In this document: piece after piece, positions 39,806 through 63,836 of the stretch | Layout: each line of letters opens with the position of its first letter | How positions within the stretch are numbered: the first letter of the stretch is position 1 | NCBI GenBank assembly: GCA_946500695.1 | Contig: CAMMWS010000002.1 | Span: 1,607 to 65,606, forward strand | Source of the DNA: an uncultured Mycoplasmatota bacterium | GTDB lineage: Bacteria > Bacillota_I > Bacilli_A > RF39 > UBA660 | Length of the DNA: 64,000 bases | Direction: 5' to 3' | The notes under the pieces: generated by a model | What the model saw: only the letters and a program-made list of their open reading frames with translations | The model's database searches: none | What the model was told of the DNA's origin: nothing | Program-made: the position numbers and the translations under genes

Positions 39806-40624
39806 TTATGATTTTAAAGTATTAGCAATATCTACAAAGATTTTATAATCTATTGCTTCAGCCCTGACATTTAAATCATAACCATATTTAGAAAGAACAG
39901 ACTCTATTTTTTTTAAATCATATTTTTTCAAGTTATTACGTAAAGTTTTTCTCTTAAACTGAAAAGAGTCATGAACAAGTTCAATAAAAAAATCTAAATT
40001 ATTTAACTTTTCTTTATTTTCCTTTTTAGTAAAAGAAACAACAACACTATCTACATTAGGCCTAGGATGAAACTGATTACGATCAACAATAAACTCTTTT
40101 TTTATCAAAAAAAAGTAATTTAAAATAACTGTAAGAGCATTATATTCTTTTTTAGAAACACTACTACAAAACCTATCACCAACTTCTTTTTGAACCATCA
40201 TTACTATCTTTTCAAAAGGCAAATTACTAGAAATTAATTTAAATAAAATCGGTGTTGTTATATAATAGGGAACATTACTAACAAAATAAAGATTACCATA
40301 ATTAAAACTATTTATATCATCATTTAAATTAGCTTTTAAAAAATCAGAAAATAATAGCTTTATATTATCAAAATCTTTAAATCTAAGTGAAAGAATATCC
40401 TCTAAACTAGTATCAATTTCATAAGCTAGTATTTTACTATCTTTATAAATATCTGCAAGAACCACAGTTAAATTGCCACTTCCGGGACCAACTTCAATAA
40501 TTAAAGAATTAGGTTTAACATCTGCTACAACAGCTATTTTCTTTATAATTGCTTTATTAGTCAAAAAATTCTGTCCAAACTTCTTCTTAAATTTAAAATC
40601 ATCCATCATACCACTTTCTTTCAT
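39806..40624 (-). CDS. rsmA: 16S rRNA (adenine1518/1519-N6)-dimethyltransferase
   Basis: KKFGQNFL, EVGPGSGNLT and SNVPYYITTPI motifs. The true start is probably one of the two internal ATGs at 40604-40609. Confidence 0.93.
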   Translation of the reverse strand: MKESGMMDDFKFKKKFGQNFLTNKAIIKKIAVVADVKPNSLIIEVGPGSGNLTVVLADIYKDSKILAYEIDTSLEDILSLRFKDFDNIKLLFSDFLKANLNDDINSFNYGNLYFVSNVPYYITTPILFKLISSNLPFEKIVMMVQKEVGDRFCSSVSKKEYNALTVILNYFFLIKKEFIVDRNQFHPRPNVDSVVVSFTKKENKEKLNNLDFFIELVHDSFQFKRKTLRNNLKKYDLKKIESVLSKYGYDLNVRAEAIDYKIFVDIANTLKS

Positions 40625-40669: not shown

Positions 40670-41128
40670 CTAAGCTTTCTTTTTATCATTAGACTTTTCT
40701 CCTATTTTTTTATCTTTCTCTCTAAACATAAATAAAATATCTGCAATTATCAAACCATATAACATTATCTTTATATAAGGTAAGAAATTATCAAAGAAAT
40801 TAAAATCTATACCATATCCATATTTAGCATTTAAAACCATATTAGTATCAAAAATTGCTCTACAACCTACAAGAATAATGGTAATAAACACTAAACAACA
40901 AGTTAAATTATAAAACAAATTTTTAGAAATTCCCACTTGCTTTAAAATCATATTAACGATAAATAAAACTAATAAAATTGTAAAGGGAATAAATTGTGGT
41001 ATAACACTCGTCATATCTTTTTCTAATCGTATATTCATTCTAATTAATATAAATAAAGTTAATCCAAAAGCTCCAATTAAAAGAAGAAACTTAAGACCAT
41101 AAAATAAACCATTAAATATTCTTTTCAT
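40670..41128 (-). CDS. Uncharacterised 4-TM membrane protein, last gene of the sipW operon
   Basis: 152 aa with four hydrophobic segments and a lysine-rich C-terminus. Its start is 1 nt after the stop of the upstream gene. Confidence 0.5.
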   Translation of the reverse strand: MKRIFNGLFYGLKFLLLIGAFGLTLFILIRMNIRLEKDMTSVIPQFIPFTILLVLFIVNMILKQVGISKNLFYNLTCCLVFITIILVGCRAIFDTNMVLNAKYGYGIDFNFFDNFLPYIKIMLYGLIIADILFMFREKDKKIGEKSNDKKKA

Positions 41129-41129
41129 C

Positions 41130-41819
41130 TTAACCTCCTACCACTACACTTCTAAACCAATTTGATACTTCTACAAGTAAGTCTAATGAATTAGAATAAC
41201 TATTCATTGTATCAGAATAACTATCACTAACTAAATTAAAAAAGTTATTCTTATTGGCTTGCGTAGTAAAATAATAATGATCTGAATTTTCAAGATTACT
41301 TTGAACATAATCAGTAGAAGATAATAAATTATCAACATTCATATCAATATATGGCTTCACCAAATTAAAATTAGGTAACATTGCAACTGTATCAGTATTA
41401 AACATAGATTTTACTTGCATAACTAAACAACCATTAAGTATTTCATTTTTATAATCAACAACAAAATTGTAACTATCATTAATACCAATCTCATCAAGAT
41501 TTAAATAATGCATCATTGTATCACCTTCAATAATATCAAGACAAGACTGCAATTTAGCTTGCGCTGTATTAAGGCCATAAACATTCAAAGACCCCGTATA
41601 AGTAGATTGATTATAAACATTTATATTATTTCTAATTATTTCTATTTTATTTTCTATACTAGCTTTACTAGTATCATTATAAGAACTAACATCAACAACT
41701 TGAGATAATTCTTGTGCATGATAGAAATTTATAAAAAGCAAGAAAAAAGCTAATCCAAAAATTAATCCCGTAAACGTATAAGCAAACATATTAACATATT
41801 CTAATAATATTTTTTTCAT
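41130..41819 (-). CDS. Uncharacterised single-pass membrane protein with a ~190-aa extracytoplasmic domain
   Basis: N-terminal TM FAYTFTGLIFGLAFFLLFINFY, then an Asn/Ser-rich domain. Its start overlaps the upstream stop by 4 nt. Confidence 0.5.
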   Translation of the reverse strand: MKKILLEYVNMFAYTFTGLIFGLAFFLLFINFYHAQELSQVVDVSSYNDTSKASIENKIEIIRNNINVYNQSTYTGSLNVYGLNTAQAKLQSCLDIIEGDTMMHYLNLDEIGINDSYNFVVDYKNEILNGCLVMQVKSMFNTDTVAMLPNFNLVKPYIDMNVDNLLSSTDYVQSNLENSDHYYFTTQANKNNFFNLVSDSYSDTMNSYSNSLDLLVEVSNWFRSVVVGG

Positions 41820-42361
41820 AAATCTTCCTCCATTTGTACATTAATATTAAAATGATAATATTTATTCTGCCAATCAGTATTAGCCGAAGACTCTGCTACA
41901 TAAATACGTAATTGATAATTATTAGTATGGCCAGATAAAATATTTCTAGTATCTAAAACATTATTTTTAATATCGCTTAAATCTCCACTTTTAATAACAG
42001 TACCATTTAAAGATAATTGATAACGTAATTGATTCCTAGAAAGCAATTCTTTACTACTATAAGAAACATCATCACTAATAATAGCATCTTCCAACAAGAC
42101 ATTATAAATAGTAGAGTTTTCACCATTATTCACAACTGTAAATTCATAAGGTGTTAATCTTTTAGCAGTTTCATCATCCAAAGGAATCAAACCACTCTCA
42201 TCAATTACATTATTGCTATTGCTTAATTGAACATTAATATTACCTGTAGTATTACTAGTACCAGTACTATTGTAAAAAAATTTATACCACAACATAGAAG
42301 TTCCAAAAATAAAAGCAAATAAAGCAACACCAGCTAAAACTAATAAAATTACTTTTTTCAT
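41816..42361 (-). CDS. Divergent fifth TasA/camelysin-like paralogue with a different N-terminal anchor
   Basis: Shares TGNINV (cf. TGTISM), LIPLDDETAKRLTPYEFTVVNNGENS (cf. AVPMDDTTGKAL..FDFTVSA), YQLRIYVAES (cf. YRLRMWVASD) and YHFNINVQ (cf. YTLRVNVYG) with the four upstream paralogues. N-terminus is LAGVALFAFIFGTS, not xFAAFxF. Overlaps the sipW stop by 4 nt. Confidence 0.55.
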   Translation of the reverse strand: MKKVILLVLAGVALFAFIFGTSMLWYKFFYNSTGTSNTTGNINVQLSNSNNVIDESGLIPLDDETAKRLTPYEFTVVNNGENSTIYNVLLEDAIISDDVSYSSKELLSRNQLRYQLSLNGTVIKSGDLSDIKNNVLDTRNILSGHTNNYQLRIYVAESSANTDWQNKYYHFNINVQMEEDL

Positions 42362-43035
42362 TTTTTAAACCTTCCTCTCTTTTCTTTCTTAAAATTATTA
42401 TCTATTTCCTTACTCTTATCTTTACCATTAGAAGATTTAATAGTTTTAACTAATTTATATATATCATAACCAATAATCATAACAGCAGGTACAATAATAA
42501 TTGCAACCCATCCTAATACAGAACTAAGATAATATTGAATATAACCAATTTTAGGAATTCTAAATAATACTCTACCATATATTTCATTAAAACTTATTCT
42601 CGAAGAATCTTGCGTATTATTATTATCTCCCTTAGTAGTAAACAAATATTCCCCACTACTTGTTTTTTCTATATCTACAATCCTATGAGTAACAAGAACT
42701 CCAGAATATCTATAATCTGTAGAATTAAAAGTTACTATATCTTCCTTTTCAATTTCTTCGGGATTATCTACTCTCATCGTAACAACAACATCTAATACAT
42801 TAATAGTTGGAACCATAGATGGACTAACTATTGTATAAGCAGAAAACAAATCTTTTTTATTATTACCAGACTTCAAATTATATTGCTTATCAATAAAATT
42901 AACTACAAATACTAAGAAAACAATAATCATTATTAAACAAATAGAATACATCAATACTGTTGCAATAAAATGAAATACTTTTCTTAAAGTAGTCAACCAT
43001 TGCTTAACTTTTTCTTTTTTCAAGCTATCACCCAC
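42358..43035 (-). CDS. sipW: Signal peptidase I, archaeal/ER type (SipW-like, S26B)
   Basis: VSPSMVPT (catalytic Ser box), VTHRIV (His instead of the bacterial Lys box), KGDNN, plus N- and C-terminal TMs. Start codon uncertain (GTG 43033-43035). Confidence 0.8.
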   Translation of the reverse strand: MGDSLKKEKVKQWLTTLRKVFHFIATVLMYSICLIMIIVFLVFVVNFIDKQYNLKSGNNKKDLFSAYTIVSPSMVPTINVLDVVVTMRVDNPEEIEKEDIVTFNSTDYRYSGVLVTHRIVDIEKTSSGEYLFTTKGDNNNTQDSSRISFNEIYGRVLFRIPKIGYIQYYLSSVLGWVAIIIVPAVMIIGYDIYKLVKTIKSSNGKDKSKEIDNNFKKEKRGRFKK

Positions 43036-43241
43036 TTATTATTCTTACTATATAAAATCACAAATGAACAAAGGAACAAAACTAACTTTGTCCTTCCAAA
43101 TAATTGCTTTTCAAATTTCCCTTGTTATAAACAGATGGCTAACTCTATCTACAACTACATTCTATCAAAAGAATAGATATATTTCTATACTTTTAAAATA
43201 ACTTTACAAGACATGTAAACAAAGGAAATAAAGAAACAACT

Positions 43242-43877
43242 TTATTCATCTAAATCAACCTTCGCCTTAATAGATACCTTGACTCCAAAAGTTTTTTCTA
43301 ATTCACCAACCTCTGTATTTTCATCTACCCACATTCTTAAACGATATTTAATAACAGCACTCTTATTTAACGAATCACTATCTAGTAACATACTTCCTGC
43401 CATAGTACCTAAATCAGTACTTTCAGTAAGTGGTGTAAAATGCTTAGGAGCCATGACCTCTTCATATTTATTATTATTCATTTTCTCTAAATACAATTTA
43501 ACTTCATCATTATTAAGTGTAGAATTTTCAAGCTTCTCAGCAGCAATTTCATAATTAGTAACAACATCTCCTGTAATATTTGCTTCAACAGTAAAATCAA
43601 AATATTGGTTTTCATCTGTCAAGATTTTACCAGCCTCATCATTCATAGGATAAGCATTAGTTATGTTGATACCATTTGTATTTTCTGTATAATCTAAATA
43701 AATATTACCTGTACTTATAGTATTAAAATTACTACCATTTTCTTTAGTATAAGTAAAAGTTGCCATGGATATACCTATTACCATAACAATAAATATAAAC
43801 AAACAAACAATAATAATAAATAACTTATTGTTTGACTCTTTCTTTATAGATTCATCTTCATAATTATTATTATCCAT
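43242..43877 (-). CDS. TasA/camelysin-like secreted protein with SipW-type signal peptide (paralogue 4)
   Basis: Start at ATG 43875-43877 after AGAGGGTG. Signal region ends GISMATFTYT, then STGNIYLDY, NGINITNAYPMNDEAG, YFDFTV and YRLRMWV. Confidence 0.65.
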   Translation of the reverse strand: MDNNNYEDESIKKESNNKLFIIIVCLFIFIVMVIGISMATFTYTKENGSNFNTISTGNIYLDYTENTNGINITNAYPMNDEAGKILTDENQYFDFTVEANITGDVVTNYEIAAEKLENSTLNNDEVKLYLEKMNNNKYEEVMAPKHFTPLTESTDLGTMAGSMLLDSDSLNKSAVIKYRLRMWVDENTEVGELEKTFGVKVSIKAKVDLDE

Positions 43878-43961
43878 AATAACACCCTCTATCTTAAAGT
43901 AATTGTACCACACTAATTTTTTTAGGTAAAGAAAAAGTGTAGTTTATCTACACCATTACAC

Positions 43962-44573
43962 TTAAACTGACATATTACCATAGACATTTATTCTCAACGC
44001 ATAAGACATACTTTCTTCTTCAGGAAGAACATAATCTGATGCAACCCACATTCTTAAACGATAACTACGACTTCCAGTTTCCGTAAAATTATCTTGTAAA
44101 ATTATATACTGATTATCAGGAACATAAGAAATGTTATTAGTTGATTTCAAATTGGAAATTTTTGTAGGAGCTACAACTTGACTTTCTCTATTACCATCGA
44201 TACTAGTTAAATAAACCTTTACTCCTTCATCTGGTAGAGTACTATTATCTTGAACTTTAACACCAGCGACTACATAATCAACAATAGTATTTCCACTCAT
44301 AGAAGCACTTACAGTAAAATCAAAATATTGGTTAGTACCAGAAAGTGCCATACCAACAGCATCTGTAGTAGGAAACGCGTCAAATAAATTAATACCATTG
44401 TTATTTTCACTATAACTCATTGTAATAGTACCTGTTAATACTTTATTAATTTCTTCACCATTTTTAGAATAATAAAAAGCTGCATAACTAACCGCTAATA
44501 CTGCAATTAACAATATAATAATAGCAACTATTGTTAATAAAACCGATTTAGATTTATTTTTGCAATTACTCAT
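43962..44573 (-). CDS. TasA/camelysin-like secreted protein with SipW-type signal peptide (paralogue 3)
   Basis: GGAGG 7 nt upstream. AVSYAAFYYS, LTGTITMSYSE, NGINLFDAFP, YFDFTVSA, YRLRMWVASDY and LRINVYG. Confidence 0.65.
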   Translation of the reverse strand: MSNCKNKSKSVLLTIVAIIILLIAVLAVSYAAFYYSKNGEEINKVLTGTITMSYSENNNGINLFDAFPTTDAVGMALSGTNQYFDFTVSASMSGNTIVDYVVAGVKVQDNSTLPDEGVKVYLTSIDGNRESQVVAPTKISNLKSTNNISYVPDNQYIILQDNFTETGSRSYRLRMWVASDYVLPEEESMSYALRINVYGNMSV

Positions 44574-44612
44574 ATCTTAGCCTCCACATTTATAATAAAA
44601 TATAAAATAAAA

Positions 44613-45224
44613 CTATTGAGCAGCAGCTGCTCCATACACATTAACTTTTAAAGAATACATCCCCGAATCAGTAAGAGTACTAAAGTCATCAGCGACCCAC
44701 ATTCTTAAACGATATGAATGTTTAATAGAGCTAGTAAGAATACCTGTAGAAAGAATAAATTCACCACTAGGAGCTTGATAATTTTCAGACCCGGTCGTTA
44801 CATCTAACTCAGATATTTTAGTTGGTGCTAATATCTCACTATCAGCACTATTATCCATATTAGTTAAATATACTTTAATTGCTGAATCATCAACAGTAGA
44901 GCTTCCTTTAACAGCAGTAATAGCATAATTAATAGTAGTAGAACCACTACCATTAATTGTAGTATCAATTGTAAAATCAAAAACATTATTAGTACCAGAT
45001 AATGACCTACCTTGTTCATCTGACATAGGTAAAGCGTTGACTAAATTAATACCGTTTTCAGGTTCACTATAAGTCATATTAATAGTACCAGTTGTAATTG
45101 TATTATTAACTTCACCAGACTGACTAAAGTTAAATGCTGCAAACGAAACACCTATAACAACTAAAACTAAGATAAATACGCCTAAAGATGATAATAACAC
45201 TTCTTTAGAATTATTCTCCATCAT
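44613..45224 (-). CDS. TasA/camelysin-like secreted protein with SipW-type signal peptide (paralogue 2)
   Basis: GVSFAAFNFSQSG, TTGTINMTYSEPENGINL, FDFTIDT, GSGSTTINYAITAV, YRLRMWVADD, VNVYGAAAAQ. Own GGAGG RBS and a TTGATA-18-TATATT promoter-like sequence. Confidence 0.65.
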   Translation of the reverse strand: MMENNSKEVLLSSLGVFILVLVVIGVSFAAFNFSQSGEVNNTITTGTINMTYSEPENGINLVNALPMSDEQGRSLSGTNNVFDFTIDTTINGSGSTTINYAITAVKGSSTVDDSAIKVYLTNMDNSADSEILAPTKISELDVTTGSENYQAPSGEFILSTGILTSSIKHSYRLRMWVADDFSTLTDSGMYSLKVNVYGAAAAQ

Positions 45225-45279
45225 TACTAACCTCCTATACTACAACAAATATACCATAGAAAAGAGTTTAATATCAACA

Positions 45280-45321
45280 TTTTTTCAAAAAAAGAAAAAA
45301 GTGCCAGAGATTAGACACTTT
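45280..45321. repeat. About 42-nt repeat (copy 1) just 3' of paralogue 1
   Basis: ttttttcaaaaaaagaaaaaagtgccagagattagacacttt, similar to 46056-46098. On the minus strand it reads as a weak hairpin plus T-runs. Confidence 0.7.
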
Positions 45322-45339
45322 TTAAAATTAATCATACTA

Positions 45340-45996
45340 CTATTGAGCAGCAGCAGCACCATATACATTAACTCTTAATGTATAAGTTTGACCACCTGGA
45401 GCTTCTTGTACGCCTTCACCATCTGGATCAACATTTTGTTGATCAATAGGATAATCAGAAGCAACCCACATTCTTAACTTATACTGATTAGATTGAGTAT
45501 TTTTAAATGTACCAGACTCAAGTATAAATTGACCATCTGGAGCACCTGAAGCATCTGATGAAGTTTTTGTTAAAGCAGAAACTTTTTTAGCTCCTCCTGT
45601 AAAATTAGTAGTAGCTGTATCAGATGAATTAGTCAAATAAACTTTTACATATTCATCTGTTAAAACTTCATCTGGTGTAGTAACAGCAGTAATAGCATAA
45701 TTAATAGTAGTAGAACCACTACCATCAATTGTAGCACTTACAGTAAAGTCAAAAGTATTACCAGCACCACTTAAAGCTTTACCTGTAGTATCATCCATTG
45801 GCACAGCATCAGTTAAAGTAATACCATTTTCTGGTTCGCTATAACTCATACTAATAGTACCAGTAGTAATTACATTTTCTTTAACACCAGTTTGACTAAA
45901 TGTAAAAGCTGCAAATGAAACTCCTACTACAGCTACAACTAAAATTGCTACTCCTAATACAGATAATAACACCTGCTTAGAATTATTATCTTTCAC
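45340..45996 (-). CDS. TasA/camelysin-like secreted protein with SipW-type signal peptide (paralogue 1)
   Basis: GTG start with GGAGG upstream. GVSFAAFTFSQTG, TTGTISMSYSEPENGITL, FDFTVSA, GSGSTTINYAITAV, YKLRMWVASDY, VNVYGAAAAQ. Confidence 0.65.
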   Translation of the reverse strand: MKDNNSKQVLLSVLGVAILVVAVVGVSFAAFTFSQTGVKENVITTGTISMSYSEPENGITLTDAVPMDDTTGKALSGAGNTFDFTVSATIDGSGSTTINYAITAVTTPDEVLTDEYVKVYLTNSSDTATTNFTGGAKKVSALTKTSSDASGAPDGQFILESGTFKNTQSNQYKLRMWVASDYPIDQQNVDPDGEGVQEAPGGQTYTLRVNVYGAAAAQ

Positions 45997-47540: not shown

Positions 47541-47717
47541 CTATTTAAAAGATTTCTTTTTTCTTCGACATAAAAACAATCTTATTAAATAAAATGTTAC
47601 TAAAACTAAATAAACAATATCTAATAAATTATGTCCTAAAATAACCATTAAAAATAAAACCGCATAAAGAACTAAAAATACAATTACTTCAATATCTAAC
47701 TTTCGTCTTTTAGTCAT
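47541..47717 (-). CDS. Unannotated 58-aa small membrane protein
   Basis: My translation: MTKRRKLDIEVIVFLVLYAVLFLMVILGHNLLDIVYLVLVTFYLIRLFLCRRKKKSFK*. Weak AAAGGA RBS. Below the ORF-track cutoff. Confidence 0.35.
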   Translation of the reverse strand: MTKRRKLDIEVIVFLVLYAVLFLMVILGHNLLDIVYLVLVTFYLIRLFLCRRKKKSFK

Positions 47718-49427: not shown

Positions 49428-49655
49428 TTCAAAATAAAAAGATTTATCATTTCAAAAGGACGATAATAACCGTGGTACCACCTTTCTTTACAATAAACCT
49501 TGCATCTCATTCTAATTAACGCTTAGCACGTTCATACTTACATATCAATATGAAAGTTCAGAAGCCATATTTTATAGAAATTATCGCTTCTTTTCCACCA
49601 ACCAAGAAGTCTCTATAACTAAATAACTATAAAACTCTTCATCAAAACTTTTAAT
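49428..49655 (-). promoter_or_regulatory. T-box leader with Met (AUG) specifier upstream of metG
   Basis: Minus strand contains TGATGAAGAG (GA/K-turn), AGAGA, GGTTGGTGGAAA, a specifier-loop candidate AAAATATGGC (AUG = plus 49566-49568) and the T-box sequence AAGAAAGGTGGTACCACGG (plus 49470-49482), then a T-run before the GGAGGAA RBS. Confidence 0.8.
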
Positions 49656-49679: not shown

Positions 49680-50219
49680 CTAATCTTCAAGATATTTTGA
49701 TAGAAAATTAGCAATTATTTGTACTATATGTTCATCTTCCTCAGTAAAACTTTTACTTTCTTCAACAACCATTAAAACTAAACCTATTGTTTCACCATCT
49801 GATAAAACTGGACTAAGAATATATTTATATTCAGTAACCGTATCTTTATTATCAACAAGTTCTCTGGCTAGACTAGAACTTTTAACTAAGTTTTCCGTTT
49901 GAAATAAATATTCTTCTAATTTAGTAGAAATATTAAAACCGCAAAAATCTTTTTTTAATTTACCACTACCTGCTACAAACTTATCACGATCTGTAACAAA
50001 AATACTTTTATTAATAGTTATATAAATAGTATCAAGTAAAGACTGTGCTATTTCACTTAAATCTGCACTAGTAGAAAATTTTTTCAAGCTAATAGTTTCT
50101 TTATCAACAAAAAACTCTAAAGATTCACCATCTCTGATTCTAAGAGATTTTCTAATATCTTTAGGAATAACTATTCTTCCCAAATCATCAATTCTTCTTA
50201 CTACACCTGTTGTCTTCAT
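49680..50219 (-). CDS. spoVT: Stage V sporulation protein T (AbrB-type N-terminal domain plus GAF-like domain)
   Basis: Start at ATG 50217-50219 after GGAAGGAG. MKTTGVVRRIDDLGRIVIPKDIRKSLRIRDGESLEFFVD is the SpoVT/AbrB swapped-hairpin motif. Confidence 0.9.
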   Translation of the reverse strand: MKTTGVVRRIDDLGRIVIPKDIRKSLRIRDGESLEFFVDKETISLKKFSTSADLSEIAQSLLDTIYITINKSIFVTDRDKFVAGSGKLKKDFCGFNISTKLEEYLFQTENLVKSSSLARELVDNKDTVTEYKYILSPVLSDGETIGLVLMVVEESKSFTEEDEHIVQIIANFLSKYLED

Positions 50220-50372
50220 AATCGCTCCTTCCTTTACAGTAGTATTGTTCCAATATCTGCCCATTTTATACCATCTAAATTATGCTATCTAATGATATTA
50301 TAAACATAAGAAGGAGTTTTTTTCCTTGGTAATTATTTCCAGTTAAAAAAATAAGCATAAAAAAACACTCAT

Positions 50373-51011
50373 CTAATCAAATAAATGAGAATTTTCTTTT
50401 GTAAAAACAAATCTTTCTACCTGCTCTTTTAAACTATTAAGAAGTATTGTATCTTTAACCAATATTTTCATATCAATAGTCTCTAATATTTGTTTAACAT
50501 AGGTTGTTTGTAAAAACTTAGTAGCATCTTTTTTAAAGTTAGAATTACTATCTTTAACAATTAAATCCAAATTACTTATAAGTTTTTCTTTAACAAGACT
50601 AGTAAGAACTTGTTTCTCTTCTTTTTTCGCTTCTTTATTAAACTTAACCAATTCTTTCTTTAAATTTTTAACTAAGTCCATTGGCTTATCATCATCAAAC
50701 TTAGAATAATTATCTTCTATTAATTTTATTCTTTTCTTAAAAATATTTCTAAACTTCTTCTTTAATTCTTCTTTATAACTAATTAAAACTTCATTAAACA
50801 TATCACTATTTAAAATTAAATTATTATGTTTAGCAATATTAAGAACTCTTTGTTTCACTGTATCCATCGCTTCAAGTGGTACTTCTATAACTCCATTAAT
50901 AATATCATCTTCTATTAAAGAATTAGTATTATTAGTAGCAAGTTCTAATCCTGCTGTCATTAATATTTGTTTATGCTGTTTTAAAATATCCTCTTTAACC
51001 ACTACTATCAT
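50373..51011 (-). CDS. Hypothetical helical, Lys/Glu-rich protein
   Basis: No recognisable motifs. Start ambiguous: ATG 51009-51011 is 2 nt after GGAGG, and GTG 51000-51002 is also possible. Confidence 0.4.
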   Translation of the reverse strand: MIVVVKEDILKQHKQILMTAGLELATNNTNSLIEDDIINGVIEVPLEAMDTVKQRVLNIAKHNNLILNSDMFNEVLISYKEELKKKFRNIFKKRIKLIEDNYSKFDDDKPMDLVKNLKKELVKFNKEAKKEEKQVLTSLVKEKLISNLDLIVKDSNSNFKKDATKFLQTTYVKQILETIDMKILVKDTILLNSLKEQVERFVFTKENSHLFD

Positions 51012-51061
51012 AGCCTCCAATTCTATTAATAAGTATAAGAAGATAAAATGTTTTAGTCAAG

Positions 51062-51089
51062 AGACAAAAGAAAAAGAGCCTAAGCTCTT
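51062..51089 (-). terminator. Rho-independent terminator after the 51088-51753 gene
   Basis: Minus strand: AAGAGC TTAG GCTCTT TTTCTTTTG; overlaps the stop codon. Confidence 0.65.
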
Positions 51090-51753
51090 ATCTATAACTA
51101 TTCTTTAAAAAGTTTGAATAAACTTTAGATTCAGTATCAATATATTCTCTATATTCAGATATATCATAAGCAAGTTTTTCAATTTCACCATTCTCATCGA
51201 TAAGTGGAACTATTAAGTCATAACCAGCTAACCTTTTTATTTCTAAAGGCATTAACATAAGTCTAGAGCGAAGTTTATTTTGCACTTTAATATAAATACA
51301 AACACCTTCATAAATTAAATACTTAACTCTCTTATGAGGAGAATTATCATACATTTCTTTTGCAGCATCTTTATCAAGCTCATAAAAATCAGAAAAGCTT
51401 TTATCCGCCTTAATACCTAGTTCTTCTTTAGAAGATAAAAGTGGTAAGAAGGAAATATCAATGCTATTAAAATATTCTTTTTTAAGTTCTATACCATCTG
51501 CTTCCATCAAAGTTCTAAGTGTATAAACAATAGTCACTAAATCTATTACTTTTATATTATCTATACAATATTTTCCCTTTAATAATGGATTAGCTATGCA
51601 AAGCCTAACATTATTATCATCAATAGCTTCAACCGAACAAATAGTTTTTAACAAATCGTTATACAATATATTAAATCTTTCATTTTCACCAATATAAACA
51701 GAAGCAAAATCTCTTTCTAACATTTCTTTAATAATTGTATCATATTCAGCCAC
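51088..51753 (-). CDS. Hypothetical protein, paralogue B of the mfd-downstream pair
   Basis: GTG start 4 nt after GGGAGAGAGG. The N-terminal ~80 aa align by eye with 52097-52672 (FASVYIGENERFNILYNDLLKTICSVE vs FHGVYLDDNDFFAVYYNDEIKTLCSIE). The C-terminal halves are unrelated. Confidence 0.5.
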   Translation of the reverse strand: MAEYDTIIKEMLERDFASVYIGENERFNILYNDLLKTICSVEAIDDNNVRLCIANPLLKGKYCIDNIKVIDLVTIVYTLRTLMEADGIELKKEYFNSIDISFLPLLSSKEELGIKADKSFSDFYELDKDAAKEMYDNSPHKRVKYLIYEGVCIYIKVQNKLRSRLMLMPLEIKRLAGYDLIVPLIDENGEIEKLAYDISEYREYIDTESKVYSNFLKNSYR

Positions 51754-52096: not shown

Positions 52097-52672
52097 TTAT
52101 TTTCCTCTTAAAATTCTGTTTACAAAAGAATTACCATTTTTTTGATAATAACTAATATTACAATCTATCATAGATTTTACTTCATATGGCATTTGTTCTA
52201 ATCTTGACACTTTAAGTTTTTCTATTAAATTATTTTCAGATTCATCAAACCTCGCACATTTTAAAAGAAGCCATAACTCAGCATCCATATCAAAAGCAGC
52301 TTCAGGAAAATCAAAATTTTCTATACTAATATCTCTTTTTTTCGCTACTATTTCATCAATTTCTTTTTCTGATACAATATGTGCTCTTGAAATAGGTAAC
52401 TTACTATCATCCCTAGGAATTTGTCTTTTCCTTAACATAAATACTATTCCAGATAATAAATTAATATCTTGAATAAATAAACTTTGATTTAAATATGGAC
52501 TATCAAGATAACATAAAATTTTTCCATGATAATCTTCAATAGAACAAAGTGTTTTTATTTCATCATTATAATAAACTGCAAAAAAATCATTATCATCTAA
52601 ATAAACTCCATGAAAACCTAATTCATTTAACTTTAGCGCAGCTGTCATAAGAAAATTATATTTTTCTTTCAC
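52097..52672 (-). CDS. Hypothetical protein, paralogue A of the mfd-downstream pair
   Basis: GTG start 4 nt after GGGAGAGAGG; 191 aa; N-terminal domain shared with 51088-51753. Confidence 0.5.
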   Translation of the reverse strand: MKEKYNFLMTAALKLNELGFHGVYLDDNDFFAVYYNDEIKTLCSIEDYHGKILCYLDSPYLNQSLFIQDINLLSGIVFMLRKRQIPRDDSKLPISRAHIVSEKEIDEIVAKKRDISIENFDFPEAAFDMDAELWLLLKCARFDESENNLIEKLKVSRLEQMPYEVKSMIDCNISYYQKNGNSFVNRILRGK

Positions 52673-63698: not shown

Positions 63699-63721
63699 AT
63701 AGTAATCTCCTTTTTATAGTA

Positions 63722-63803
63722 TAAAAAAAGTGCACATAAATTAAATTTGTTAAGGCTGCTATGTTTCCATCCTGACCTGATTCCAAACTAATTTATTGCA
63801 CGT
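63722..63803 (-). ncRNA. ffs: Small (4.5S-type) signal recognition particle RNA
   Basis: Minus strand: GTGCAATAAATTAGTTTGGAATCAGGTCAGGATGGAAACATAGCAGCCTTAACAAATTTAATTTATGTGCAC. Conserved domain IV AGGUCAGG / AGCAGCC loops flank an AUG-GAAA-CAU GNRA hairpin. The ends pair as 5 + 8 bp (one bulged G). T-run follows. Confidence 0.8.
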
Positions 63804-63807
63804 TTAA

Positions 63808-63836
63808 AGTATACAAGAAAATAAATATTATTTCAA
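63808..63836 (-). promoter_or_regulatory. Sigma-A promoter of the SRP RNA (TTGAAA-17-TATACT)
   Basis: -10 = reverse complement of 63808-63813; -35 = reverse complement of 63831-63836. The predicted start is 6-7 nt downstream, at the first base of the SRP helix. Confidence 0.7.

Follow-up and report, generated by a model that had tools for sequence, protein, structure and literature searches.

The window analyzed here, a 64,000-nucleotide stretch of contig CAMMWS010000002.1 from an uncultured Mycoplasmatota bacterium, contains a cluster of eight co-oriented open reading frames (ORFs), all on the minus strand and together spanning positions 40670-45996. They encode four clear paralogs (P1 to P4), a signal peptidase I, a divergent fifth paralog (P5), and two membrane proteins (M1 and M2), and they are flanked by a yabE-like 3D-domain gene (PF06725; 46100-46693) and by ksgA (39806-40624; TIGR00755, 226 bits). 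The explanation that we favor, at about an even chance, is that the paralogs are SipW-processed subunits of a surface-exposed, antigenically variable polymer made without an ATPase or a sortase; such a polymer would work in the manner of TasA, membership in the TasA family not being established. A prediction made earlier from the nucleotide sequence alone had described the locus as a TasA-like system. Its dedicated peptidase, five paralogous secreted proteins, and SipW-like motif stood up to analysis; family membership and mature-domain homology were not supported, and a shared fold was not established.

Extracellular filaments that form without ATP, by strand donation after signal peptide removal (TasA, BsaA, AbpA, and cannulae), are an emerging class in bacteria and archaea. 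By analogy with TasA, BsaA, and AbpA, the SipW-like enzyme would cleave after S-[FY]-A, and the freed N-terminal strand, A-F-x-[FY]-S with its alternating aromatics, would insert into the sandwich of a neighboring subunit in a donor-strand complementation. Such insertions would link the subunits into a fiber growing at the membrane. P4 may be a conserved initiator or tip subunit; P5, which has no cleavage and donor motif, would stay in the membrane and anchor or terminate the fiber; and M1 and M2 may provide a lineage-specific membrane platform or tether. Long relatives encoded elsewhere, carrying Big_2, Listeria-Bacteroides repeat, DUF285, or BspA-type leucine-rich repeat (LRR) domains, would be adhesin-bearing subunits that use the same module. 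Fiber formation itself we infer.

SipW-dependent homo- and heteropolymers growing at the membrane are on record (PMC9674648, PMC11580942, PMC13082335). TasA is SipW-dependent and forms a donor-strand polymer that grows at the membrane (PMC9674648). In the BsaA model, the polymer also grows at the membrane and SipW cuts once a subunit has docked, and several paralogs in one BsaA/TasA operon may form heteropolymers (PMC11580942). Because heteropolymeric SipW/TasA-type filaments with accessory proteins, as well as multi-paralog operons, have already been described (PMC13082335, PMC11580942), the many subunit types that the original prediction pointed out are not new in themselves.

Peptidase, cleavage motif, and paralogous precursors

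The arrangement of eight co-oriented genes between the yabE-like gene and ksgA, as predicted, was confirmed in the ORF list of the window. The junctions were also as claimed (4-nt overlaps between peptidase and P5 and between P5 and M1, and a 1-nt gap between M1 and M2), and every motif that had been quoted (the N-terminal strings, TGTIxM, FDFTV, YRLRMWV, and VNVYG) was found in the translations. Pfam and NCBIfam scans and a motif check detected no ATPase, prepilin peptidase, sortase, or LPXTG motif among the eight genes.

The assignment of the peptidase to the archaeal/endoplasmic reticulum (ER) type holds, since it passes the signal peptidase I model TIGR02228 for that type with 88 bits (cut-off 51.85) and has the catalytic Ser/His/Asp motifs (SPSM at residue 71, HR at 117, and GDN at 136). 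Two transmembrane segments, N- and C-terminal, are predicted. It scores 93.5 bits on NF046067, the equivalog model for Bacillus SipW; this is below the cut-off of 190, and we therefore do not count it as a SipW ortholog. Judged by its sequence, the enzyme is SipW-like in type without being a SipW ortholog by the NF046067 criterion.

The paralogy of P1 to P5 is, from sequence comparison, certainly far beyond chance. Identity to P1 is 56% for P2, 46% for P3, 31% for P4, and 26% for P5. A family hidden Markov model (HMM) matched the five proteins at E = 4e-77 to 4e-26 (P5 at 4e-26), a slightly circular test as all five are in its building alignment, and a reciprocal HMM built from P5 orthologs alone matched P1 at 3.8e-08. 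No further window protein was matched in the HMM searches with P1 to P5. Identities and both HMMs thus support the predicted division into four clear paralogs and a divergent fifth.

The P1 to P4 precursors begin with a signal peptide that ends in a small-aromatic-Ala motif, S-[FYM]-A, and S-[FY]-A/A-F (the slash marking the predicted cleavage site) is present in most family members inspected. The hydrophobic region of the N terminus is about 19-20 residues long. The likeness to the TasA pre-protein that had been noted at this site was borne out: the motif is of the SipW-like small-aromatic-Ala kind and stands in register with the TasA site. In place of S-[FY]-A-A-F, the P5 orthologs have a conserved ...TSMLWY[KR]FFY at their N termini. 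P5 was found in all loci that reach its position, and its start overlaps the end of the peptidase gene in every syntenic locus reaching there.

M1 has a constant length and, in the comparison of orthologs, two invariant cysteines in its extracytoplasmic part. It has 411 detectable relatives; those listed are all 226-229 aa long, and the sole named one is a hypothetical protein. As far as these relatives indicate, M1 is restricted to the lineage of the window. M2 always follows M1 in the syntenic loci. Neither M1 nor M2, each represented by 12 orthologs, matched a Pfam or NCBIfam family or a PDB entry, and Pfam and NCBIfam scans of the eight proteins and of 67 family members gave a name to the peptidase alone.

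Conserved locus and variable major subunits

The closest genomes are metagenome-assembled genomes of uncultured Bacilli/"Tenericutes", including Candidatus Onthousia from chicken gut. Among the loci of 13 GTDB species, all nine that reach both flanks had the gene order metG, tatD, 3D-domain gene, one to five major-type genes, P4, peptidase, P5, M1, M2, ksgA, yabG, veg, spoVG, and the four cut loci were consistent with it over the part that they cover. Metagenome contigs of the lineage, retrieved with the five window paralogs as query, showed the same order where they reached both flanks, the yabE-like gene being missed at the search threshold in several. P4 lies directly upstream of the peptidase gene in the loci reaching there. 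A deep branch (L036), with metG 61% and peptidase 39% identical to those of the window, carries at this junction three family members, a peptidase, a P5-like gene, M1, and M2, with a related family member in the place of P4. The cluster had been read as an insertion into a conserved gene order. Comparison of the yabE-ksgA junction rules out a recent insertion, as the cluster is present in every relative examined, the deep branch included; because it is syntenic in all of them, we regard it as an old, fixed feature of the lineage.

Within this fixed frame, the major-type genes vary between strains. Same-species strains were recovered through their near-identical M1 proteins. In one of them, L103, the flanks are 96-100% and the core genes 98-100% identical to the window, whereas P1 to P3 are only 66.5-90% identical (tatD, 98.8%; 3D-domain gene, 99.5%; P1, 66.5%; P2, 87%; P3, 90%; P4, 98.6%; peptidase, 98.7%; P5, 97.8%; M1, 99.1%; M2, 100%; ksgA, 96.3%; yabG, 99.6%). 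Three strains of a second species with identical M1 and ksgA had four, three, or two major genes, with identities of 60-95% for the best matches between strains. The 218-aa P1 of the window has a 14-residue insert within its PIDQQNVDPDGEGVQEAPGG stretch that is missing from the 203-aa alleles. Its identity is 84% with the first major gene of another species and about 66-72% with the allele of its own species; one P1 allele type is thus common to more than one species.

A conserved core with variable major proteins is a pattern known from flagellins, pilins, and abundant exposed antigens, where it goes with diversifying selection and allele exchange. Given the strain-level variation, the product is a likely target of phage or host immune pressure, and this variation matters for strain typing and gut ecology. 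Mobile elements occur in some of these loci. One major-gene array of the second species is interrupted by ISL3 and IS110 transposase genes (L100:2807-6375), and L103 carries a group-II-intron-type reverse transcriptase gene between metG and tatD (L103:922-2193; RVT_1, 423 aa) and an IS605 OrfB/TnpB gene between M2 and ksgA (L103:9266-10414). All of these elements are absent from the window.

Relation to TasA, predicted fold, and the wider family

The results that weigh against a TasA-like polymer concern the family models, the mature domain, the predicted fold, and the long relatives of the module; the in-register signal peptide alignment, the sub-threshold matches of some family members, the ranks of AbpA, FimG, and TasA in the fold search, and the adhesin domains of long members speak for it. 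P1 to P5 gave no match at E <= 1 to PF12389 (Peptidase_M73) or NF046066 and so lie below the TasA/camelysin threshold. Among 67 diverse family members, sub-threshold matches were seen in three for PF12389 (best E = 0.0048) and in three for NF046066 (best E = 0.011). On TIGR04088, the model of the SipW-dependent-type signal peptide, P2 reached 15.5 bits against a cut-off of 19, and five of the 67 members had sub-threshold matches. The profile searches thus upheld the archaeal-type signal peptidase I and left the SipW-cognate signal peptide and camelysin models below threshold, and the TasA/camelysin family membership that had been claimed was not supported.

Alignment of profiles located the similarity that does exist. 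With B. subtilis TasA alone as query (sequence checked against PDB 8aur, 504 bits), hhalign aligned 60 columns of the family in register (probability 31-33%, E about 5e-4), pairing SFA/AF with TWA/AF and TGTIxM with SGTLDL. A seven-sequence TasA/CalY alignment drawn from Bacillus plasmid genes extended this, at full length, to 90 columns (probability 45.7%, E = 2.1e-4). When the signal peptides were taken off both sides, the probability was 4.8% over 33 columns, and P = 0.008 compared with P = 0.027-0.033 in reversed-sequence controls. Because the mature-only score falls to control level, the significant similarity to TasA lies in the signal peptide and cleavage region and does not extend to the folded domain. 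Mature-domain homology to TasA, promising at E = 2e-4, was therefore rejected, and the resemblance to TasA core strands that the original prediction had pointed out is without statistical support (P = 0.008 versus 0.027 reversed). A tblastn search of plasmids with P1 found no match. The plasmid records CP052064.1, CP046512.1, CP037991.1, and CP024689.1 label orphan TasA-family genes "cell division protein FtsN", which looks like a misannotation.

A full-length AlphaFold model from 26 sequences was too poor to use (pLDDT 68.7) and was replaced by a model of the mature P1 domain from 88 sequences (pLDDT 84.7, pTM 0.83). The model shows nine strands in an all-beta sandwich, and beta-sandwiches of about 190 residues are predicted for the mature proteins. 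Mature residues 1-8 fall below pLDDT 50 in the monomer model, and although this N-terminal segment is modeled as disordered, A29 and F31 are among the most conserved positions. A Foldseek search of 350,542 PDB chains returned nothing at E <= 1e-3, and all TM-scores were 0.40 or less. The C-terminal domain of chlamydial Pgp3 headed the list, followed at rank 2 by the AbpA bundling pilus (7ueg_A; probability 0.89, TM 0.32-0.33, identity 13%); FimG, a donor-strand pilin, was 15th and the TasA fiber (8aur_A; probability 0.51, TM 0.30) 19th; generic beta-sandwiches (Pgp3, CBM domains, PA14) ranked beside AbpA. The AbpA, FimG, and TasA matches hint at the class of strand-donating filaments without establishing it. 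With TM at 0.30-0.32 and no match at E <= 1e-3, the predicted sharing of a fold with TasA and AbpA is possible without being established. Viral structures gave generic beta-sandwich matches alone, and PDB sequence searches with P1 and three profiles produced nothing significant.

Matches to archaeal pilins in the PDB profile search (E = 0.11-0.51) were set aside because the hydrophobic segment drives them. They bear on another explanation, that the proteins are type IV pilin-like subunits of the archaeal kind, which would keep the helix as the filament core and be assembled by an ATPase, a platform protein, and a prepilin peptidase from other parts of the genome. Weak matches of the family profile to the Sulfolobus/Saccharolobus pilins 6nav_A (E = 0.11) and 8tib_A (E = 0.51) span the helix and the beta domain; Pilin_N (PF07790) has sub-threshold matches in 7 of 67 members (E = 0.039-0.18), and a Mycoplasma pilin-like model also matches weakly. 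All pilin matches are nevertheless below threshold, and the hydrophobic stretch is preceded by N-regions of varying length (about 5 to 45 residues) and by no conserved [KR]-[GA] site. No ATPase, platform protein, or prepilin peptidase was found in the eight genes (the rest of the window was partly scanned), and a signal peptidase I, such as the cluster has, cuts after the hydrophobic region. We consider type IV pilin-like subunits highly improbable.

The module extends well beyond the cluster. A word-indexed search yielded 1,232 relatives, none with a name or Pfam domain, and an exhaustive profile search found 5,286 clusters (50% identity) at E <= 1e-3 and 2,471 at E <= 1e-10. Cluster look-ups gave no existing name for the family, and literature searches gave no description of it, in agreement with the original remark that these proteins belong to no recognized, characterized family. 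Conservation peaks in the N-terminal half (G25, A29, F31, N41, T45-G46, Y52, A64, P66, G72, and FDF) and is lowest at residues 111-170. A C-terminal G-x-A-x-A-Q is present in nearly all short major-type members (GAAAAQ 55 times and GAADAQ 24 times, plus GQAAAQ, GTAAAQ, and others). In the window this tail is present in P1 (45340-45360) and P2 (44613-44633) and absent from P3, P4, and P5, as it is from the long forms; capping, cross-linking, and recognition are possible roles.

About half of the best 150 representatives of the 5,286 clusters are long proteins of roughly 260-1,743 aa. In these, the module makes up the N-terminal 200 residues, retains the S-[FY]-A-[AV]-F motif, and ends in ...VNVYG; behind it come a linker and then passenger domains (Big_2, Listeria-Bacteroides repeats, InlB B-repeats, DUF285, BspA-type LRRs, DUF6273). 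These passenger domains are all typical of surface adhesins. On human-gut contigs the long genes occur here and there between housekeeping genes, and neither a peptidase nor M1 or M2 lies within 8 kb of them. Orphan genes of the TasA family on Bacillus plasmids are arranged likewise. In one human-gut contig (L048:10052-13567), a 650-aa long member with DUF6273 lies immediately upstream of a 1,171-aa adhesin that combines a thioester domain with nine SpaA repeats, and the two probably form one surface-protein island.

The long forms point to a second explanation, that the proteins make up a surface coat without filaments or act as an anchor module. The N-terminal segment and sandwich would form a membrane- or wall-proximal stalk displaying variable surfaces or adhesin passengers, the short proteins would make a dense, antigenically variable coat, and the peptidase would merely release or mature some of them. 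The share of long members with adhesin domains behind an N-terminal module fits such a stalk, as do the many that have no nearby peptidase and the anchor-like length of the hydrophobic region. The conserved aromatic motif could lie at the membrane interface of an uncleaved anchor instead of in a donor strand, strain hypervariability fits any exposed antigen, and the fold search gave only generic beta-sandwich matches. Against this stand a dedicated peptidase that is conserved and overlaps the start of P5 in the syntenic loci, -3/-1 residues (Ser/Ala) that suit cleavage by signal peptidase I and are aligned with the TasA site, and a segment that is disordered in the monomer model and yet ranks with the best-conserved parts of the protein. 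Proteins that consist of the module alone, lack a passenger, and have high-expression signals would also need a function of their own. On balance, a coat or anchor module appears rather unlikely.

The polymer reading can be widened into a more tentative one, which we regard as possible but doubtful. The module of about 200 residues may represent a kind of surface-filament subunit not recognized before and widespread among uncultured low-GC gut Bacilli; it comprises at least 5,000 sequence clusters and is covered by neither a Pfam nor an NCBIfam model. Its likeness to TasA would be limited to the SipW-type peptidase and the donor strand, and the system would have its own anchor (P5), its own platform (M1/M2), adhesin-carrying long paralogs, and major alleles swapped across strains and species as antigenic variation. 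Already on the favored polymer explanation, the cluster would add a large unannotated branch of ATP-free strand-donating filaments in uncultured gut Bacilli related to Candidatus Onthousia, with features unreported for TasA systems: a paralog that is a candidate uncleaved anchor, two membrane partners that are conserved, relatives with adhesin domains, and a major subunit that is replaced from strain to strain. A testable function would then be at hand for thousands of "hypothetical proteins".

The TasA systems used for comparison were tapA-sipW-tasA of B. subtilis and sipW-tasA/calY/capP of Bacillus cereus (PMC9674648, PMC10151520, PMC13082335). The cluster shares with them a dedicated archaeal/ER-type signal peptidase encoded beside its secreted substrates, a signal peptide ending in small-aromatic-Ala followed by A/F-F in register, several paralogous subunits with accessory proteins and neither ATPase nor sortase, and, as predicted here, a mature beta-sandwich with a conserved free N-terminal segment. 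Unlike them, its proteins miss PF12389, NF046066, and TIGR04088, show no significant profile similarity in the mature part, and reach a TM-score of only 0.30; the module is smaller (about 190 residues) and without the helical insertions of TasA. The cluster also has five paralogs, one of them without the cleavage motif, its accessory proteins are the unrelated membrane proteins M1 and M2 rather than TapA or CapP, and its major subunits are hypervariable between strains. The sipW-bsaA-bsaB-bsaC locus of Clostridium perfringens (PMC11580942) likewise combines SipW with more than one TasA-like paralog, but the cluster does not encode a von Willebrand A protein and showed no link to type IV pilus genes, and its sequence family is a different, unannotated one.

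AbpA (PDB 7UEG) is a small jelly-roll-type subunit that is processed by signal peptidase I and polymerizes by N-terminal strand donation, and its operon has no dedicated peptidase (PMC9245690). Among the structural matches it is one of the top two, and no other filament subunit ranks higher (Foldseek rank 2, probability 0.89); it reaches a TM-score of only 0.32-0.33 at 13% identity, and no sequence-level relationship was detected. The sortase-assembled pili of Gram-positive bacteria offer a functional analogy only. They too have major, minor, and basal subunit classes with a strain-variable major subunit, and an unprocessed basal subunit could stop growth and anchor the fiber; the cluster, however, has no sortase or LPXTG and would instead rely on non-covalent strand insertion after signal peptide cleavage.

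Feature coordinates, expression signals, and neighboring genes

The features of the cluster are listed in Table 1. P4 was called as an ORF of 223 aa (43242-43913) with a GTG start at 43913. Its start is most likely the ATG at 43877, because a ribosome-binding site precedes this codon and the orthologs are 210-213 aa long.

Table 1. Features of the cluster, with positions in the window (slash, predicted signal peptide cleavage site)
Feature	Position	Strand	Remarks
P1, variable major-type subunit precursor, 218 aa	45340..45996	-	signal peptide GVSFA/AFTFS; beta-sandwich module; C-terminal GAAAAQ tail; strong ribosome-binding site
P1-P2 intergenic module	45225..45339	-	terminator-like hairpin 45296-45323; extended -10 promoter-like site 45248-45277; ribosome-binding site; pattern scan
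P2, second major-type subunit precursor, 203 aa	44613..45224	-	GVSFA/AFNFS; GAAAAQ tail
P3, third short paralog, 203 aa	43962..44573	-	AVSYA/AFYYS; no AQ tail; followed by terminator-like hairpin 43936-43954
P4, single-copy conserved minor-type paralog, 211 aa	43242..43877	-	long charged N-region; motif GISMA/TFTYT
SipW-like archaeal/ER-type signal peptidase I, 225 aa	42358..43035	-	TIGR02228; Ser71 (SPSM), His117 (THRIV), Asp136 (GDNN)
P5, divergent paralog, 181 aa	41816..42361	-	family HMM; no S-[FY]-A-A-F motif; candidate uncleaved anchor or terminator subunit
M1, membrane protein, 229 aa	41130..41819	-	one N-terminal transmembrane segment
M2, small membrane protein, 152 aa	40670..41128	-	four transmembrane segments predicted

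A pattern scan and alignment placed P1 and P2 each behind a module consisting of a terminator hairpin, an extended -10 promoter, and a consensus ribosome-binding site, these promoter and terminator calls being consensus matches alone and no evidence of function. The P1-P2 intergenic region resembles the region upstream of P1 (45997-46099), and the best promoter-like sites before both genes are sigma-A-like with an extended -10. The two modules are consistent with high, independent expression of P1 and P2.

The neighbors of the cluster include yabG, spoVG, yabP, yabQ, and a spoVT-like gene, and the original prediction had linked the locus to sporulation on the basis of its position. The neighborhood is a conserved origin-proximal gene order in Bacilli and is silent on co-regulation. 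The cluster could in principle encode a structure of the spore surface that is made during sporulation, for example a coat or an exosporium appendage, and the only support within the window is these neighbors. TasA was reportedly first described as the spore-associated protein CotN. PDB entry 5of1 names it "Spore coat-associated protein N", which likewise favors such a structure. The gene order is nevertheless a general one in Bacilli, the promoter-like sites of P1 and P2 are sigma-A-like, and no sporulation-sigma promoter was identified in a search that was not rigorous. We consider a spore-surface structure very unlikely, and the proposed link to sporulation was not upheld.

The product of the spoVT-like gene (49680-50264, minus strand) is an AbrB-family regulator whose 146.6 bits on TIGR02851 fall short of the equivalog cut-off (235.9). 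Its presence together with yabG, yabP, and yabQ suggests that this small-genome lineage (one contig of 1.52 Mb) has kept sporulation genes. Three minus-strand ORFs without an NCBIfam match (50373-51020, 51088-51753, and 52097-52672; 215, 221, and 191 aa) separate the spoVT-like gene from mfd, and related loci likewise carry unannotated genes there. A T-box leader (49453-49654, minus strand; 99.1 bits) precedes metG, and a small signal recognition particle (SRP) RNA lies near the end of the window (63714-63811, minus strand; 57.6 bits). A 58-aa ORF with a hydrophobic core between metG and tatD (47541-47717, minus strand) is probably a real small membrane protein, because a gene of the same size was called at the same place in most of the loci L100 to L107.

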